Below, in pieces: positions 9,163-22,626 of a stretch of 64,000 bases of DNA. Every line of letters begins with the position of its first letter. Within the stretch, counting starts at the first letter, position 1. Source of the DNA: Enterobacteria phage vB_EcoM_IME341. The notes beneath the pieces are model-generated. The model was not told the DNA's origin and made no database searches. It worked only from the letters and a program-made list of their open reading frames with translations. The stretch is from sequence record MH051917, one strand, 5' to 3'. Position numbers and translations under genes: made by a program.

Positions 9163-9492
9163 ATGAACAAGCTGAATATTGTTAATGAACTTCGTCGTTG
9201 TGCAGAACCTACTCAAGAAGGTTGGGACATTTGGTACCACGGTGCTTATCTCGGCACTATTGTTAAGATTAAAGCAGGTAAATACTTAATCATCCGTGGT
9301 GGTTCTGAAGCTTCTATGGGAATCCGCAAGAACTTTATGGCAGCAATCAGCACCTTTGTTCCAGCCGCTTATGAAGTCTATAAAGCCGACTATAAAGAAT
9401 ACCAGGAATCACAACCAGTTATTCGTTCGATTGGTGTTAATAAAGCTCAACAGAAAACTTTATGGCAGCGTGTTAAAGGATGGTTCAAATGA
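9163..9492 (+). CDS. hypothetical protein
   Basis: 109-aa ORF with SD gaggaaatt. Confidence 0.45.
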   Translation: MNKLNIVNELRRCAEPTQEGWDIWYHGAYLGTIVKIKAGKYLIIRGGSEASMGIRKNFMAAISTFVPAAYEVYKADYKEYQESQPVIRSIGVNKAQQKTLWQRVKGWFK

Positions 9493-9827
9493 TTCCTATG
9501 GAACTTAACTGGGACGGCGAAGGCCATTCTCTTAAATTGATTGAAGAACAACGTAATGATTGGGATGAACGCGTAGCTCTGGTAAATGGTATTAAGAAAA
9601 TTTATCAACTTAATCTCCAGATTGATAACGTTCATCTTGAATTTGGTATGCAGTTATTGCGATTTCTTGAGATTATTTTTATAGAAAAAGTAAATATAAC
9701 TTCGTATGGCGAAGGCCAAACAGTTTATATTAAATTATCGTCCTATTATAAAGGTGATTTAATTGAAACCACCACTAAAATTCAAGAATTTGCTAAAGAT
9801 AACGGTCATAAGGTGATTTTCAAATGA
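9489..9827 (+). CDS. hypothetical protein
   Basis: ATG 9489 overlapping previous stop (ATGA). Confidence 0.4.
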
Positions 9828-10312: not shown

Positions 10313-10593
10313 TGAATCTTAAACAACTCCAGATTGATGCAATCGAAGCCCATATCAACCATATTAAACGTCTGAACGTTATGCTGGAAGACAACTGGGG
10401 AACTTATGTCAACCAACCCGCGTGGGATGCATTGGACCATGAATATATAAAGAATATTAGTTCTAAGACAATCCATGGGAATATGGAAGGGTTGAAGCCA
10501 TTCCTACGTGATATGTATATCGCAACTAATAAAGAAATTATTAGCTCTCTTGAATATCAATTAAGGAAATTACGTGAACAATCTGGTAGCTAA
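10312..10593 (+). CDS. hypothetical protein
   Basis: 93-aa ORF overlapping previous stop. Confidence 0.45.
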   Translation: MNLKQLQIDAIEAHINHIKRLNVMLEDNWGTYVNQPAWDALDHEYIKNISSKTIHGNMEGLKPFLRDMYIATNKEIISSLEYQLRKLREQSGS

Positions 10594-10682
10594 GCACGAT
10601 TTCAATAAGGCGGCTGTCCATAAGGATAAGAAGAAAAACTTTAAAGAATCTAATCGCAAACAGAAACATAAGGGTAAAGGCT

Positions 10683-10964
10683 ATGATTACTAAACTCCAA
10701 ACATGCGAAGCAACTGAACTGGTTATTCTCATTGACGAGCTTTTTAAAATTCATGCTGCTGTTGGTGACGAAATCTATGCAGAAATTCTTTGTGATTTGG
10801 ATAGCTGTTTTGGTTATATCCAACCGGAATATACAATTCGATTCTCTTGTGAACGCCCAGGTTATGCCAAGGTAGTTTTTGGCTCCGGCCTAGATGAAGA
10901 ACAAGTATTAAGAGAAATCCAAGAAGAAATTGATGATTTCGGTTTAGAAGATTATATTGATTGA
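10683..10964 (+). CDS. acidic protein, possibly Arn-like DNA mimic (anti-McrBC)
   Basis: 93 aa with strongly acidic C-terminus; position between motA and asiA where T4 arn lies; no sequence-level confirmation. Confidence 0.3.
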   Translation: MITKLQTCEATELVILIDELFKIHAAVGDEIYAEILCDLDSCFGYIQPEYTIRFSCERPGYAKVVFGSGLDEEQVLREIQEEIDDFGLEDYID

Positions 10965-10974
10965 GGAGCAATCT

Positions 10975-11133
10975 ATGAGTCATAACTTAGAGAATACCGT
11001 AACAGGCATGCGTACGCGTGAGCAGGAGTGCTTTGAGGAATTCCTGGGAGCTGATTTTAAGTTCCAGGAACCAATAGAAGAGATGTATCAGGAATATGTT
11101 AAAAAGAACGAAGGACATGTTTACAATCCCTAA
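10975..11133 (+). CDS. small hypothetical protein (52 aa)
   Basis: ATG 10975 after SD gaggagc; below track cutoff. Confidence 0.25.
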   Translation: MSHNLENTVTGMRTREQECFEEFLGADFKFQEPIEEMYQEYVKKNEGHVYNP

Positions 11134-11188: not shown

Positions 11189-11464
11189 ATGACTAAAATT
11201 GAAATCGTTTCCGAAATTGCCACTATTGTTTCCATTTTGATTAAAACGGATTGTGAAGACATCATGCAACGTCGTGATGAGTTTATTGCCTTTTTGAATG
11301 AGTTGGGTATTCGTAATGAACATGGAAAGGAACTTAATGGACTATCTTTTAATAAACTCTTTAAGTCTTTAACTGAAGATGAACGTGATACTCTTATCGA
11401 GCAATTTAATGAAGGGTATGAAGATATACACCGTTACCTAATGATGTATACCTCCAATTTTTAA
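11189..11464 (+). CDS. asiA: AsiA anti-sigma70 factor
   Basis: 91 aa; IVSEIATIVSILIK..FIAFLNE..LTEDERDTLIEQFNEGYEDIHRYLMMYT matches recalled T4 AsiA. Confidence 0.85.
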   Translation: MTKIEIVSEIATIVSILIKTDCEDIMQRRDEFIAFLNELGIRNEHGKELNGLSFNKLFKSLTEDERDTLIEQFNEGYEDIHRYLMMYTSNF

Positions 11465-12114
11465 CGAGTTCGACCTAATGTCCTTCCGGCTTGACCGCAC
11501 ATAGACGAAAGTCTAGGAAATCCTAAATCCGGTTTGATATCATACCAGTACAACGATATCGAGCCGGCATAGATGTTATCCAAATTAAAAAACGGGCATG
11601 AAAACATATACGTGAATTGTGTTTTCTTCTTTGTAGGAAGGAATACAGTTTCGGTACTTGATTCAAAATAGTTCCCGTTAACTCCCGCCATATATTCTAC
11701 TGACGTTTTGTCAATTGGAAACCCTCCCGTATTTTTTGCGTCTACCGTTTCCGGTAATTTACCCTCGTAAGCCACCATATCCACAAAATAATTCATGTTG
11801 GTTGGTCTAAAAGAATATATTGCTGTGAAGTCTGCGCCTGAAGAAGAATGCACTATTCGGAGCTGCTCGATAGCCGCAATTTTAAATCTATTGTCCTGGT
11901 CTTGTCTAATCATTTCAGTATAAGAGGCATAAGTTGTCTCTTTGTAAAAGTTTAGAATATACTCGCCTTTATACCAAACCAGTGCCATAAAGAACAATAA
12001 TACCACGACTAGGACCCGGGAAAAAACTACTTTCCCGGAAGAAGTATCTTTAAAAATTCTATCAAGAAGTCCAAAAAGTAGGTCTGATAATGAAAATCCT
12101 ACTTTTGGTTCCAT
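11461..12114 (-). CDS. t: holin T
   Basis: 217 aa; LFGLLDRIFKD..GKV..SRV..VVLLFFMA..W and C-terminal NLDNIYAG..LYWY match recalled T4 holin. Confidence 0.9.
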   Translation of the reverse strand: MEPKVGFSLSDLLFGLLDRIFKDTSSGKVVFSRVLVVVLLFFMALVWYKGEYILNFYKETTYASYTEMIRQDQDNRFKIAAIEQLRIVHSSSGADFTAIYSFRPTNMNYFVDMVAYEGKLPETVDAKNTGGFPIDKTSVEYMAGVNGNYFESSTETVFLPTKKKTQFTYMFSCPFFNLDNIYAGSISLYWYDIKPDLGFPRLSSMCGQAGRTLGRTR

Positions 12115-12132
12115 ACTTTTCTCCTTTAAAGA

Positions 12133-12140
12133 TATTTATA
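12133..12140 (-). promoter_or_regulatory. late promoter TATAAATA upstream of t
   Basis: plus-strand tatttata = TATAAATA on minus strand, about 20 nt upstream of holin ATG. Confidence 0.6.
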
Positions 12141-12151
12141 ATACAGAAGTA

Positions 12152-12940
12152 TTACACACGGCTTCCGTAGATGGTTCCTACGTTCTGCCAAGAAGGAGCA
12201 TTGCCTGTAACGGCTGCACCAGCTGAACCGCCTGCAGAGGTATAAACGTTTTTGCCCCATCCTCGTCCACCGCCAGCACCAACATTACCGCCGTTACCTG
12301 CGCCGTATTGGACCGTGGTACCACCTGAGCCAGCGGCAGTTAGAGATGCGTTTGCACCGGACAATATGGCATCAGACCCTATTTTCCCACCGACGCCGAA
12401 TGGTCTACCACCACCGCCGCCACAGGTACCGTTAGTCGGATAGCTGTTCTGTAACGATACAGCACCGCCACCGCCGCCACCGCCAGCGATAGCACCATTG
12501 TTTCGAATACGCAATTTGGTTCCAGCGGCGTTATGGATTGCTGTACCACCTGCTTGGCCTGCAGAACCATTAGTAGAACCATTACCTCCTCGACCATAAA
12601 CAGTTACGCCACTATTAATGGTAAGTTGAATATACGCATTAGGAAGATTACTAGGAAATTCCAGACACGGGTTTCCGCGGCTATTTGATACTATGTTGCC
12701 GGTAATTGTGATAACGACAGGCGCACTGCCTTGGGCTCTCATCCAATTAATTAGCGTATTTCTGTCATAAGAGTTATTAGCCCCTATAGATAAGTAAATT
12801 TCTTTTGATTGGTTAGCCATCGAACCCATCCAACCCGGAACAGCTACACGAACATCTCGCATTGCTGCATCCATCCAACGTTGACCTGTTTCGTCAACTG
12901 CAGATTGTCCGACCCAACCAGGTAATCCTACGATTGCCAT
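12152..12940 (-). CDS. 38: gp38 tail-fibre adhesin (T2-type, glycine-rich motifs)
   Basis: 262 aa; N-terminus MAIVGLPGWVG; multiple poly-Gly runs (GGGGGGG, GGGGG) alternating with variable segments. Confidence 0.8.
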   Translation of the reverse strand: MAIVGLPGWVGQSAVDETGQRWMDAAMRDVRVAVPGWMGSMANQSKEIYLSIGANNSYDRNTLINWMRAQGSAPVVITITGNIVSNSRGNPCLEFPSNLPNAYIQLTINSGVTVYGRGGNGSTNGSAGQAGGTAIHNAAGTKLRIRNNGAIAGGGGGGGAVSLQNSYPTNGTCGGGGGRPFGVGGKIGSDAILSGANASLTAAGSGGTTVQYGAGNGGNVGAGGGRGWGKNVYTSAGGSAGAAVTGNAPSWQNVGTIYGSRV

Positions 12941-12952
12941 AATAAATCCTTA

Positions 12953-12966
12953 GGGCCCGAAGGCCC
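12953..12966 (-). other. UUCG hairpin between gp37 stop and gp38 SD
   Basis: minus-strand gggcc-ttcg-ggccc followed by taaggatttattATG of gp38. Confidence 0.5.
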
Positions 12967-12971
12967 TTTTC

Positions 12972-15900
12972 TTAATTTAATTTAGCTTCAAGTTCTCTAA
13001 CTTTAGCCGACAGGGTTTTAACCGCTTCAATTAACAGAGCAACTTGTGCCTGAGTCGAAACTGTTAGAACCGTATTTTCCTGTGAATCTAAAGACTCATG
13101 CACCGCTTCAGGTAATACTTCTTTAAGATTCTGAGCAATAACACCTGCTTCAGTTTGAACCGCTTCACCACCGATATATTCAGCTTTATCATAGATTAAA
13201 CCATCGAGTTGTTCAACCTTTTCAAGAGCATTTTCAATAGGCTTGAAGTTAGATTTTAAACGAATATCAGAACGAATATAAACGTTAGGAGCATTTATAT
13301 TTTTATATGAATACAAATCACCGTTTTGGAAACGGAAAGTCTGTACGCCATTCGCATATATGTCTAATAATCCATCGCCATTTTGCTTAATACCGGTATC
13401 ACTATCGCCAAATGTTATACTACTTCCACCGAGTGAGTTAGTTGTATTAACACCAAAGGCACTTGTTTGTGGCATCTGTACTTTACCAGGGCAATCTAAA
13501 AGACCGTCCATTGTAAAGCGCCATCTTGCTTGTTGGCCGGTAGCGTTGTCGCCACGTATACGAATAATGCCATCGCGCCAACCAGCTGTGGTACCAGTGC
13601 CGACCCATCCAAATTCAAAGGTTTGACGATAACCCGCTGAACCATAGTTACTCCACGCACCGACAATAGGATAATAACTACCCGAATTGGATAAATCACC
13701 ATGGTCTGCCATAAAGGTGATTTTAGATTTCGTGGAATCTGAGTTATCAGCCCAACCGCCCGGCGCGCGTGCAGATGAAACCACTCGCGAAGTAATATTG
13801 CCAAGGTTAGTATTACCACCGGTAACGTTTAATCCGCCACCAGTAATATTTAACCCGTGGTTCATGCCAACACGGCCATCGGCCATGTTGATAGAGAAAG
13901 GTCTTAAGCCATTCCACAGCCCGTCAGTTGCATTTGGGTTTTCTGCCGTGTTTTTATCTGTAACTAAAATATAAAAACTTCCACCGTCGTTTCTAATCAA
14001 AGCAGCATTAGAACCTATATCATTACCACTGGATTTGATACGCATACCTTTTTGATTATTGGTAACGTATTCACCACGTGTAACAATATCCGATTCGCCA
14101 GCAGCAAACATTCCGTCAATGTTGTTCAGCATTCTTACAGATTTACCTACAACATGACCTTCAGGTAATGTTTCTACCAAAGGCTGGACATCGCTATTAA
14201 TACCCACTACGGTTACTTTACTATTGCTACTGCATGCATATTCTACTACCAAAGAATTAGAATACCCACCTAAGTAAACGTAAATATCATAGATATCATC
14301 GCTTGTGTTAACCGAAGCAATCTGGGAAATAGCTTCAGAAGTTCTATTCCACAACGTAGCATTAAGGCCTTTAGGATTATTATTGCCGGTTCTAAGGACT
14401 ATTTCGGCTATTGAAGCCTGACCATAACTTTTAAAATTAAATCCAGACCCACCTGATATTTTAAAGGATGCTGTACCCGCACCTTGTGGAATTTCTACAG
14501 TAGCAAATTTATACCAACCTGTAGCAGCGCCGCCTTGCCAACCGCCTGTGTTAACTTTACGGTCTAACGTTGTGTTCAGGTTTTTAAAGTTTTCTAATGC
14601 AGTGCTGCCTGTAATATTACCGTCAGGACCAATACGAACATCGGAACCAATTTTAAGTGCCTTGGTTATATCAACAGTATCAGAGTTTAATGCAATACCA
14701 TGGGAGTATGTATAGTTATGTAAACGAACAACGTTACCACCATCGCCAATACCTAAATACCATTTTGTAACATCGGCTTTACGTCCTTGGATAAAGTTAG
14801 ATGCCGCCTGGGATGAAGCATTTACCACAATGGCGTCGGAATCCATATTAACACGCAGTCTACAGTCGGTCTGAACAAATTTACTTACGTTGTCTACTGT
14901 AAAAAGTGGACCACCTGTAGAAGTTTTATTACCCATTATAACCGTGCCATTAGCCAAATTAATGGAAAGCGGGCGAAGGTCGCTTATTCCACCGTTTTCA
15001 CCAGCGTTCTGGAGAGTAGGAATAAGATGGAATGAAGCAGAAGAACCTGTTTCTGAACGACGGAAAATCATACCGTATTCGGCATTCCAAATTCTTAATG
15101 CGTCAGCGGTACCGCCCATTTTAACTTGCCCGTTAATTGAAGCACCACCTTGGACAAACAGGCCATTAGTCATGGTAACATTGCCACCAAAAGAACCTGT
15201 ACCAGAGGCACTTATATTACCAAGGCCTATGATATGGCCTGTTTCAACAGTTCCGTTAAACTTAAAATTAACAGGTCCCACACCACCAGCAACAGCTGGA
15301 TTGGTTCGTTGGGCATAAAAATAATAACCTTGTGAATCTGAAACTTCCCAAACAGTTTCTCTATTACCTTTTTCAGCATTAAATGAGTTACCCCATGCTT
15401 TAAGTATAACAGTGTTTTTGTTCTGACCTGCGCGAGTACCTGAATCCCAATTAAGGGTTTTTGTCCCGTCAACGGCTGTAGGAGCAGTGAAAGCTAAGGC
15501 TGAAGTGTTATTATTAGAATTAAGAACAAGGCCATTATTAATTTGCAGACGTTGGGTCGAGGAAACTGTGCCATCGGCTCTAAGATTCAGTTCATTAACC
15601 CCGGTTTTAATATTCAAAATACCTGGTTCAATAATCATGCCTTCTGCCATAGAAATGGCTACACGACCTGTACCACGGAAATAATGATAAAGTTTACCAT
15701 TAGAATTATAACCTAAATGGGTTTGACCATCCCCAGAGTTATTACCGTCTATTTCGGTTCTAATAGAAACCATAGAAGAGTTCTGGCCAGGCAGAAGCCA
15801 AGTAAGACCTTGGTCATTACTACGGCCAAATATGGTTTTACTAGTCCCACGGAAGCCGTCGGAAGTAACAGAAGCGACAGAATAACCTCCACCTACTAAA

Positions 15901-16841
15901 TCAAAATTACCTTGTTTAATATATTTCAGACCAGTTACAGTGTCACCTAGAACAAGATACTTATCGCCCATTACACCGACGTTACCATAATCACTAGACG
16001 GGAAATCTGTAGTGAATGTACCTAATGCAAGGCTATTACGGCCTGCCATTCGTCCGTCATTACGAATGCCATATTGTTTAGATGACGGAGTATTACCTGT
16101 CCACCAAGACAGTTCATCAGCTTGACCTAATTGGGCGGTGCAAAGCTCGTGCCACATTGTGCCGCCGGATTTAGCACGAACTTTACGAAGATAGTTTACA
16201 CCATTCGTTTCACCGGTGCCTGGATAAACATACTGAACTAATGATTGTGAATCGTATTGTCCAAAGGCTTTAGAATCATGATTAATTAAATTAACACTAA
16301 TAGTTGGTGTACTAATAGAAGTTAAAGCAGTTAATTTGCGTGCCTGGAAGATGCCGCCATCTGTAGAAATAAAATGAAACTCTGAGTTCTGTGCGCCGGC
16401 AGCAGTACCTTGACGAACTCGCATTGTTGCTACGCCTTCATTTTCAGATTGGGGCTTAGCATATAATACAGCGCGTTCAGAACCGTTGGTATTTTCAAAC
16501 CACAAATGAGCATTAGAAGTATCATTAGATGCTCTAGCATAAAATGAACCATTACGAGCTCGGAAAACTGGGGCAGTAATACTACCTTCAGTTCTCATAC
16601 CCGCGGTACTAGTTTGAACAAGTTCGCCATCTAAAGTCAAACGGCCGTTAATAGTTACATCACCATCAACCTGACCGCCCTTTGCAAAACCTAAATCAAT
16701 AATCTGTCCCTGGTCTGACTTAGTAAAAATAGTGCGGTCACGCAAGTTAATAGCCAGTTCACCTTCATCTAACTGGGCTGCAGTAGGCTTGGCTCCTGCT
16801 ATTTTACTTCTTTTAAATTGTATCGATTTTAAAGTAGCCAT
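12972..16841 (-). CDS. 37: gp37 distal long tail fibre subunit with C-terminal intramolecular chaperone domain
   Basis: 1289 aa; N-terminus MATLKSIQFKRSKIAG matches T4 gp37; C-terminal ~100 aa carry SDIRLK motif and coiled coil; position between 36 and 38. Confidence 0.8.
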   Translation of the reverse strand: MATLKSIQFKRSKIAGAKPTAAQLDEGELAINLRDRTIFTKSDQGQIIDLGFAKGGQVDGDVTINGRLTLDGELVQTSTAGMRTEGSITAPVFRARNGSFYARASNDTSNAHLWFENTNGSERAVLYAKPQSENEGVATMRVRQGTAAGAQNSEFHFISTDGGIFQARKLTALTSISTPTISVNLINHDSKAFGQYDSQSLVQYVYPGTGETNGVNYLRKVRAKSGGTMWHELCTAQLGQADELSWWTGNTPSSKQYGIRNDGRMAGRNSLALGTFTTDFPSSDYGNVGVMGDKYLVLGDTVTGLKYIKQGNFDLVGGGYSVASVTSDGFRGTSKTIFGRSNDQGLTWLLPGQNSSMVSIRTEIDGNNSGDGQTHLGYNSNGKLYHYFRGTGRVAISMAEGMIIEPGILNIKTGVNELNLRADGTVSSTQRLQINNGLVLNSNNNTSALAFTAPTAVDGTKTLNWDSGTRAGQNKNTVILKAWGNSFNAEKGNRETVWEVSDSQGYYFYAQRTNPAVAGGVGPVNFKFNGTVETGHIIGLGNISASGTGSFGGNVTMTNGLFVQGGASINGQVKMGGTADALRIWNAEYGMIFRRSETGSSASFHLIPTLQNAGENGGISDLRPLSINLANGTVIMGNKTSTGGPLFTVDNVSKFVQTDCRLRVNMDSDAIVVNASSQAASNFIQGRKADVTKWYLGIGDGGNVVRLHNYTYSHGIALNSDTVDITKALKIGSDVRIGPDGNITGSTALENFKNLNTTLDRKVNTGGWQGGAATGWYKFATVEIPQGAGTASFKISGGSGFNFKSYGQASIAEIVLRTGNNNPKGLNATLWNRTSEAISQIASVNTSDDIYDIYVYLGGYSNSLVVEYACSSNSKVTVVGINSDVQPLVETLPEGHVVGKSVRMLNNIDGMFAAGESDIVTRGEYVTNNQKGMRIKSSGNDIGSNAALIRNDGGSFYILVTDKNTAENPNATDGLWNGLRPFSINMADGRVGMNHGLNITGGGLNVTGGNTNLGNITSRVVSSARAPGGWADNSDSTKSKITFMADHGDLSNSGSYYPIVGAWSNYGSAGYRQTFEFGWVGTGTTAGWRDGIIRIRGDNATGQQARWRFTMDGLLDCPGKVQMPQTSAFGVNTTNSLGGSSITFGDSDTGIKQNGDGLLDIYANGVQTFRFQNGDLYSYKNINAPNVYIRSDIRLKSNFKPIENALEKVEQLDGLIYDKAEYIGGEAVQTEAGVIAQNLKEVLPEAVHESLDSQENTVLTVSTQAQVALLIEAVKTLSAKVRELEAKLN

Positions 16842-17522: not shown

Positions 17523-17530
17523 TATTTATA
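17523..17530 (-). promoter_or_regulatory. late promoter TATAAATA upstream of gene 36
   Basis: plus tatttata at 17523-17530. Confidence 0.55.
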
Positions 17531-22618: not shown

Positions 22619-22626
22619 TATTTATA
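22619..22626 (-). promoter_or_regulatory. late promoter TATAAATA upstream of gene 34
   Basis: plus tatttata 22619-22626, about 33 nt upstream of gp34 ATG. Confidence 0.6.

Follow-up and report, generated by a model that had tools for sequence, protein, structure and literature searches.

The gene 38 locus

The window, meaning the whole stretch of DNA that was analysed, comprises 64,000 nucleotides from sequence record MH051917 (Enterobacteria phage vB_EcoM_IME341, hereafter IME341). Around gene 38 the genes are read from the minus strand in the order g37-g38-t, which is the T-even order. The features of the locus are:

12972..16841, minus strand: gene 37, distal half-fibre carrying gp38, 1289 aa (PHROG 1699 and Pfam)
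12152..12940, minus strand: gene 38, predicted T2/S16-type long-tail-fibre tip adhesin, 262 aa and a stop codon in an ORF opening with ATG
11461..12114, minus strand: holin gene t, 217 aa, downstream of g38 (Pfam and PHROG)
12953..12966, minus strand: GGGCC-UUCG-GGCCC hairpin in the g37-g38 spacer (from the sequence; about -12 kcal/mol)
17523..17530, minus strand: TATAAATA late-promoter motif between g35 and g36, the nearest exact match upstream of g38 (pattern search)

A reading made earlier from the sequence alone had described a 262-residue protein starting MAIVGLPGWVG. This ORF was found at 12152..12940, with these first residues; the strand, which the sequence-only reading had left out, is minus, and the plus strand across the same interval contains many stops. 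The product is identical from first to last residue to YP_010094700.1 / AWD91953.1 of vB_EcoM_IME341 (UniProt A0A2S1GRF4, named 'Receptor-recognizing protein gp38'). Over 25 kb of flanking sequence, identity to Dhakavirus genomes (IME08, AnYang, dhabil and fDHCT2 among them) is 90-96%. Two short metagenomic contigs also matched, with 100% identity to window positions 12111-13053 in the case of a contig of 943 bp.

Elsewhere in the window, positions 10600-11000 (ORFs 10683..10964 and 10957..11133, both plus strand) gave only 10-40% aligned identity to fDHCT2, AnYang, IME08, dhaeg and LHE83, and positions 10575-10689 match the small hypothetical T2 ORF T2_255 at 84% identity. On these alignments a small accessory gene appears to have been replaced here, between asiA and arn.2. 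Positions 9601-9800, within the plus-strand ORF 9480..9827 (115 aa), are missing from fDHCT2 and T2 or cannot be aligned there, whereas conservation in AnYang, IME08 and LHE83 is 94-97%, and this ORF is classed from the alignments as a variable small ORF.

The g37-g38 spacer is 31 nt long and holds the hairpin followed by the Shine-Dalgarno sequence TAAGGA (12947-12952). The position of the hairpin is kept, with differing stem sequences, in T2, T4, T6, S16 and other Dhakaviruses (IME281, LHE83). It looks like a conserved RNA element, presumably with a role in mRNA stabilisation or processing. The exact T4 late-promoter consensus TATAAATA occurs on the minus strand just upstream of t (12133-12140), g36 (17523-17530) and g34 (22619-22626), and its count in the window (9 observed, 6.7 expected) is not above chance. 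As no exact TATAAATA lies between g36 and g38, the idea of a late promoter dedicated to g38 was rejected. Judging only by the position of the motif, g36, g37 and g38 are probably co-transcribed.

Family assignment and predicted fold of gp38

With Pfam cut-offs of 25 bits, gp38 matched PF05268 (GP38, 'Phage tail fibre adhesin Gp38') over the full model (aa 47-262, 3e-80, 269.6 bits) and PF21721 (Gp38_N) at aa 1-42 (5.7e-16, 58.7 bits). The same two-domain result was obtained for T2 gp38 and T6 gp38. PHROG 2056 ('tail fiber protein; host specificity') was matched at 4.5e-98. The alignments that had been proposed as a check on the family gave 87% identity to T2 gp38 across all 262 residues with zero gaps and 40% identity to T6 gp38; the solved structures yielded two sequence matches only, S16 gp38 (6F45_D, 3.7e-44) and 9V85 (1e-42), the latter a GFP-gp38 fusion with the receptor-binding domain of PP01 gp38 (PMC12892980).

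The glycine runs that had been noted in the sequence were located at aa 153-159 (GGGGGGG), 174-178 (GGGGG) and 223-225 (GGG), together with six GG pairs. Glycine makes up 58 of the 262 residues overall and 32% of the C-terminal 147 (aa 116-262). Because the glycine columns are invariant or nearly so among 109 homologues, and given the bit score of the PF05268 match, the pattern is judged from the sequences not to be a chance effect of composition.

Structure prediction, the other check that had been proposed, was carried out with AlphaFold2 and the 109 homologues. The model has a mean pLDDT of 90.9 and a pTM of 0.86, and its confidence is low only in HVS2 (aa 161-170, with aa 165-167 below 50). 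A Foldseek search of the PDB returned nothing but gp38 structures at E<=0.001: 6F45_D (S16 gp38) with E 1.3e-23 and TM 0.82/0.86, and 9V85_C (PP01 receptor-binding domain) with TM 0.79/0.92, rmsd 1.6 Å and 48% identity. The fold predicted for gp38 is that of a central beta-helix with a polyglycine-II sandwich, and the protein was divided as follows:

12803..12940, minus strand: aa 1-46, N-terminal gp37-attachment domain, predicted three-helix bundle with W9, W22 and W37 (Gp38_N match; AlphaFold2)
12596..12802, minus strand: aa 47-115, first part of the central beta-helix domain (AlphaFold2 strands 48-115, pLDDT 96-98; Foldseek TM to 6F45_D as above)
12155..12595, minus strand: aa 116-262, predicted glycine-rich receptor-binding region, comprising GRM1-5, HVS1-4 and a conserved C-terminal end (32% Gly, invariant Gly, TM to 9V85)
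12551..12577, minus strand: aa 122-130, HVS1 loop, STNGSAGQA (high entropy and insertion sites at 122-128 in the 109 homologues)
12422..12463, minus strand: aa 160-173, HVS2, AVSLQNSYPTNGTC, holding residue 161 (entropy peak; lowest pLDDT)
12302..12385, minus strand: aa 186-213, HVS3, holding D190 and G207 (entropy; residues checked)
12230..12265, minus strand: aa 226-237, HVS4, RGWGKNVYTSAG (entropy peak; main insertion site aa 228)

In S16 gp38, three conserved tryptophans of an N-terminal three-helix bundle are inserted into pockets of the gp37 trimer (PMC6851490). The predicted N-terminal helices of IME341 gp38 span residues 10-18, 23-29 and 38-41, with W9, W22 and W37 directly before them. 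All three tryptophans are invariant in a 12-sequence reference alignment, and among the 109 homologues the conservation of W9 and W22 is 90% or more. The suggestion that the conserved N-terminus attaches gp38 to gp37 therefore agrees well with S16 docking.

The rest of S16 gp38 is a five-ring beta-helix with two extensions, in which the glycine-rich motifs form a three-layer polyglycine-II sandwich bearing hypervariable distal loops (PMC6851490). In IME341 gp38 the beta-helix strands beyond residue 115 interleave with the glycine-rich region. A layout of five GRM and four HVS has been described by Trojet et al. (PMC3157838) and Lutz et al. (PMC12032242), and here the limits were taken from the column entropy profile across the 109 homologues. 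The conserved blocks (GRM1-5 and the C-terminal end) fall at 116-121, 149-159, 174-185, 214-225 and 238-262, and the variable blocks (HVS1-4) at 122-130, 160-173, 186-213 and 226-237, with insertions mostly at aa 228.

By sequence and predicted structure, then, gene 38 encodes a T2/S16-type gp38 adhesin of a Dhakavirus (a JS98-like T-even phage). This identity is not new: the family, the fold, modular exchange and the exact protein had all been described earlier.

The partner protein gp37 and the fibre tip

The 1289-residue product of gene 37 matched PHROG 1699 ('long tail fiber protein distal subunit', E=0, 1036 bits) and the Pfam families gp37_trimer, Gp34_trimer and Peptidase_S74. The C-terminal 155 residues gave an alignment with the S16 gp37 tip construct 6F45_A (E 1.5e-9) that takes in the SD.R.K motif. 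The relevant segments are:

13098..13271, minus strand: gp37 aa 1191-1248, predicted intramolecular chaperone, Peptidase_S74 (PF13884, 9.1e-16)
13242..13541, minus strand: gp37 aa 1101-1200, fibre tip just before the chaperone domain, the most T2-like segment of gp37

Peptidase_S74 is also found in T2 gp37 and S16 gp37, whereas T4 gp37 lacks it and matches Collar and Phage_fiber instead. Since gp37 of IME341 bears this domain like its T2 and S16 counterparts and unlike that of T4, the fibre is assigned from sequence to the type that folds itself and is then capped by gp38.

The segment at aa 1101-1200 is presumably the surface on which gp38 docks. Compared with T2, 85-92% of its nucleotides and 90% of its amino acids are identical; at 4-fold synonymous sites the identity is 86%, while the rest of gp37 has about 0.5.

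The receptor

The host receptor of IME341 is known from published work on the phage, whose 172,379-bp genome was there assigned to 'Js98virus' (PMC6499177). Resistant mutants of BL21(DE3) bore mutations in fadL. When fadL was deleted, plaques were lost and the adsorption rate fell from 7.8e-10 to 4.2e-11, both being restored by complementation; the FadL substitutions L161V and L394E weakened infection, and on BL21(DE3) FadL alone was needed (PMC6499177). That paper does not mention gp38. FadL is a receptor of T2 too (PMC3157838), which BASEL finds likewise, and T2 gp38 is held to recognise both FadL and OmpF (PMC12529663; PMC3157838).

The hypervariable segments of IME341 gp38 were compared with those of gp38 proteins of other receptor classes. 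Given by phage, receptor and HVS2-4 identity to IME341 gp38, the results were:

T2: FadL, 0.83
IME281: OmpF, 0.48
Bas47: OmpF, 0.46
LHE83: OmpA, 0.24
S16: OmpC, 0.17
T6: Tsx, 0.16

S16 is presumably an OmpC binder, and is entered as such. Its authors describe the binding site as 'yet unknown' (PMC6851490). In this comparison HVS2-4 identity tracks receptor class. HVS4 of IME341 differs from that of T2 only by A236E. Position 161, in HVS2, is V in IME341, A in T2 and T in SV76. An escape mutation of T2, D190G, lies in HVS3 of its gp38 (PMC12529663), and SV76 gp38 differs from T2 gp38 only at residues 161 and 207, with different receptors reported for the two phages (PMC3157838). Because T2 and SV76 are separated by two HVS residues, and IME341 differs from T2 at one of these (161), predicting the receptor by homology alone would be unsafe. 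The assignment to FadL is upheld, despite the change at 161, by the experiment on IME341 itself (PMC6499177).

With T2-like HVS and the published FadL dependence of the phage, IME341 gp38 falls in the T2-type (FadL-class) subgroup. T2-type gp38 proteins are carried by T2 and SV76 in Tequatrovirus, by IME341, IME08, AnYang, fDHCT2, dhaeg, dhabil and CLB_P2 in Dhakavirus, and by a third group, VR20 and CJ20, in which the holin gene has only 77-78% identity to that of IME341. A literature search on Dhakavirus gp38 and OmpF receptors returned LHE83 (OmpA) only, and nothing on T2-type alleles.

Other Dhakaviruses use other receptors: IME281 uses OmpF (PMC6499177) and LHE83 uses OmpA (PMC10987938). 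Their holin genes are 97.6-97.7% identical to that of IME341, but the C-terminal domains of their gp38 proteins only about 46-58%. Along the LHE83 sequence, nucleotide identity drops to 21-58% in distal gp37 and gp38, and is back at 99% where the holin gene starts. Since these sister phages combine near-identical holins with other types of gp38 and with OmpF or OmpA as receptor, the cassette of gp37 tip and gp38 would be what sets the receptor in Dhakavirus.

The sequence-only reading had also named gp38 as the likely primary receptor-binding protein, and it is borne out in so far as a phage with the identical protein depends on FadL (PMC6499177). The link from gp38 to FadL is strong, by analogy with related phages. 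From what is known of T2, S16 and PP01 we infer that gp38, rather than another fibre protein, would contact FadL, and would do so through its HVS loops. Very probably, therefore, gp38 is an adhesin, monomeric and placed at the tip of the gp37 trimer, which binds FadL in the host outer membrane.

The assembly and action of the tip may be pictured as follows. Trimerisation of gp37 would be aided by the intramolecular chaperone domain at its own C-terminus, a domain that is later cleaved off. The three-helix N-terminal domain of gp38 would then plug W9, W22 and W37 into three equivalent pockets on the exposed gp37 tip. The central beta-helix would bear two extensions with glycine-rich motifs that form polyglycine-II helices, packed in a rigid sandwich, and HVS1-4, lying between these motifs, would form distal loops that touch the extracellular loops of FadL in a reversible first adsorption.

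Different roles for gp38 were weighed against this. A chaperone of the T4 type, which would aid gp37 trimerisation and be missing from the virion, is suggested only by the name of the gene and its place between g37 and t, and by GenBank records in which some adhesin-type homologues are named 'distal long tail fiber assembly catalyst'. T4 gp38, however, has 183 residues against 262 and matches no Pfam family, so that it is without adhesin domains, and BLASTP found no similarity between it and IME341 gp38 (E=57, 9.6 bits, 3/13 identities). IME341 gp38 instead matches the adhesin families and, in Foldseek, the adhesin fold, and its gp37 bears an intramolecular chaperone of its own, which T4 gp37 does not. 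The earlier claim of an adhesin and not a T4-type chaperone thus holds, T2 gp38 being by far the closer protein in BLASTP, and the T4 identity, ruled out by direct BLASTP, Pfam and fold, has practically no chance of being right. Alternatively gp38 might be a structural cap only, with FadL dependence due to the gp37 tip or the short fibres. In its favour, the synonymous sites of gp37 aa 1101-1200 are closer to T2 (0.86) than those of gp38 are (0.54), which is a reason to count gp37 sequence in the cassette common to both FadL phages. Yet the S16 gp37 tip is buried beneath gp38 (PMC6851490), the host-range and escape mutations of T2 lie in the HVS of gp38 (PMC12529663; PMC3157838), the loops of PP01 gp38 cross-link directly to OmpC (PMC12892980), and it is HVS identity, not gp37, that tracks receptor class. 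A merely structural gp38 is very improbable.

A further proposal keeps the adhesin and gives it an additional or alternative receptor on other hosts, either OmpF, as for T2, or FhuA or LPS, as for SV76, which is reported to use OmpF, FhuA and LPS (PMC12529663; PMC3157838). The reported binding of both OmpF and FadL by T2 gp38 fits with this, as does the difference at residue 161, one of the two switch positions between T2 and SV76. In addition, the sequence AVSLQNSYPTN in HVS2 is almost that of the OmpF binders IME281 and Bas47 (G/AVSLQNSW..N), and nearer to theirs than AASLKNS of T2 is. On the other side, T2 is FadL-dependent on K-12 according to BASEL and Trojet et al. (PMC3157838), and IME341 required FadL alone on BL21(DE3) (PMC6499177). 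A second receptor is unlikely on balance, and binding of FadL by the HVS loops of gp38 is retained as the preferred reading.

Evolution of the gp37-gp38 cassette

The gp38 gene is intact, and its dN/dS values of 0.03-0.14 against five relatives point to purifying selection. The comparison with T2 gave a dS of about 1.06, with dN/dS at 0.076 for the whole gene and 0.057 for HVS2-4. The picture of glycine runs interleaved with variable segments is therefore right as regards the entropy profile across the family but needs qualifying within the T2 type, where the segments are under strong purifying selection (83% identity, dN/dS 0.057). These 'variable' segments, on the sequences compared, differ between receptor classes and are strongly conserved inside one.

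Amino acid identity to T2 is 87% for gp38, whereas gp37 overall, t, asiA and motA reach 52-57%, and a T2-like nucleotide block extends from about 14150 to 12140, with a sharp end at the gp38/t boundary. The idea that gp38 was acquired recently, by horizontal transfer out of a T2-like phage, was considered and found only partly supported: dS stands at about 1.06, and the identity of 0.54 at 4-fold sites is not clearly above that of motA (0.47) or most of gp37 (about 0.5), the values for t and asiA being 0.24 and 0.33. Because dS is so high and the 4-fold identity unremarkable beside motA and gp37, the high identity of gp38 to T2 would mostly reflect constraint and an old exchange. For gp37 aa 1101-1200 only, the synonymous sites suggest a recent cross-genus exchange, confined to the presumed gp38-docking tip.

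Within Dhakavirus the locus is a mosaic: most of gp37 resembles IME08 (97-100%), whereas the gp38 C-terminal half resembles AnYang (99-100%), as does the holin gene. Within the gp38 gene there are 44 nucleotide differences from AnYang in codons 1-130 and 1 in codons 131-262, and since they are so distributed, an intragenic breakpoint is placed by sequence comparison near 12550, between GRM1 and GRM2. The GRM-recombination model predicts a breakpoint so placed (PMC3157838).

As the synonymous sites are saturated (dS near 1) and the phages belong to different genera, yet both use FadL and dN/dS in the HVS is about 0.06, the gp38 proteins of IME341 and T2 may amount to a natural experiment, in which the HVS would be stable receptor-class signatures and not fast-evolving loops. 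Set against residues 161 and 207 and the D190G mutation, the 14 substitutions tolerated in the C-terminal domain could then delimit the FadL-binding surface, and HVS2, common to the OmpF binders, might encode the OmpF half of the dual specificity of T2. We put these proposals forward tentatively; the chance that they hold is somewhat below even.

Comparison with known systems

Current understanding of such adhesins is unchanged by the IME341 protein. The assignment of gene 38 as an adhesin, not a T4-like chaperone, tells annotators and engineers which gene sets the primary receptor. The link between a T2-type gp38 and FadL in IME341, absent from the receptor paper (PMC6499177), is made here with confidence. 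IME341 supplies a second, diverged gp38, inferred to bind FadL, for comparison with T2, and together with IME281 (OmpF) and LHE83 (OmpA) it forms an isogenic-like set for cassette swaps.

T4 gp38 has only its gene name and map position in common with IME341 gp38; its partner gp37 is without an intramolecular chaperone and is itself receptor-binding. The 'assembly catalyst' name is attached in public records to adhesin-type gp38 of IME281, RB49, JSE, T6 and Bp7, where it is inherited from T4 and is a mis-annotation.

S16 gp38 (6F45 chain D) shares with the IME341 protein the three domains, the docking tryptophans and the polyglycine-II sandwich (predicted in IME341), and its gp37 tip and chaperone domain are homologous to those of IME341. 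The two gp38 proteins are 43-48% identical, but S16 gp38, at 249 aa, is the shorter of the two, HVS2 and HVS4 carry deletions, and its HVS loops are unrelated (17%). The receptor-binding domain of PP01 gp38 (9V85) gives the best structural fit to the corresponding part of the IME341 model. Loops D and E of PP01 gp38 contact the receptor directly (PMC12892980); its HVS sequences differ from those of IME341, and the receptor is OmpC of O157.

T2 gp38 is like that of IME341 in its length of 262 aa with no indels, its Pfam architecture, the order g37-g38-t and the Peptidase_S74 domain of its gp37. The two proteins differ by 33 substitutions; the attachment domain holds 9 of them, the beta-helix 10 and the C-terminal domain 14, V161 being one of these. 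The IME341 genome is that of a Dhakavirus, in which the flanking genes have only 52-55% identity to those of T2, and a dS of about 1.06 means that its gp38 gene is not a recent copy of the T2 gene. D190 and G207 are nevertheless present in both proteins, and FadL is the receptor of both phages.
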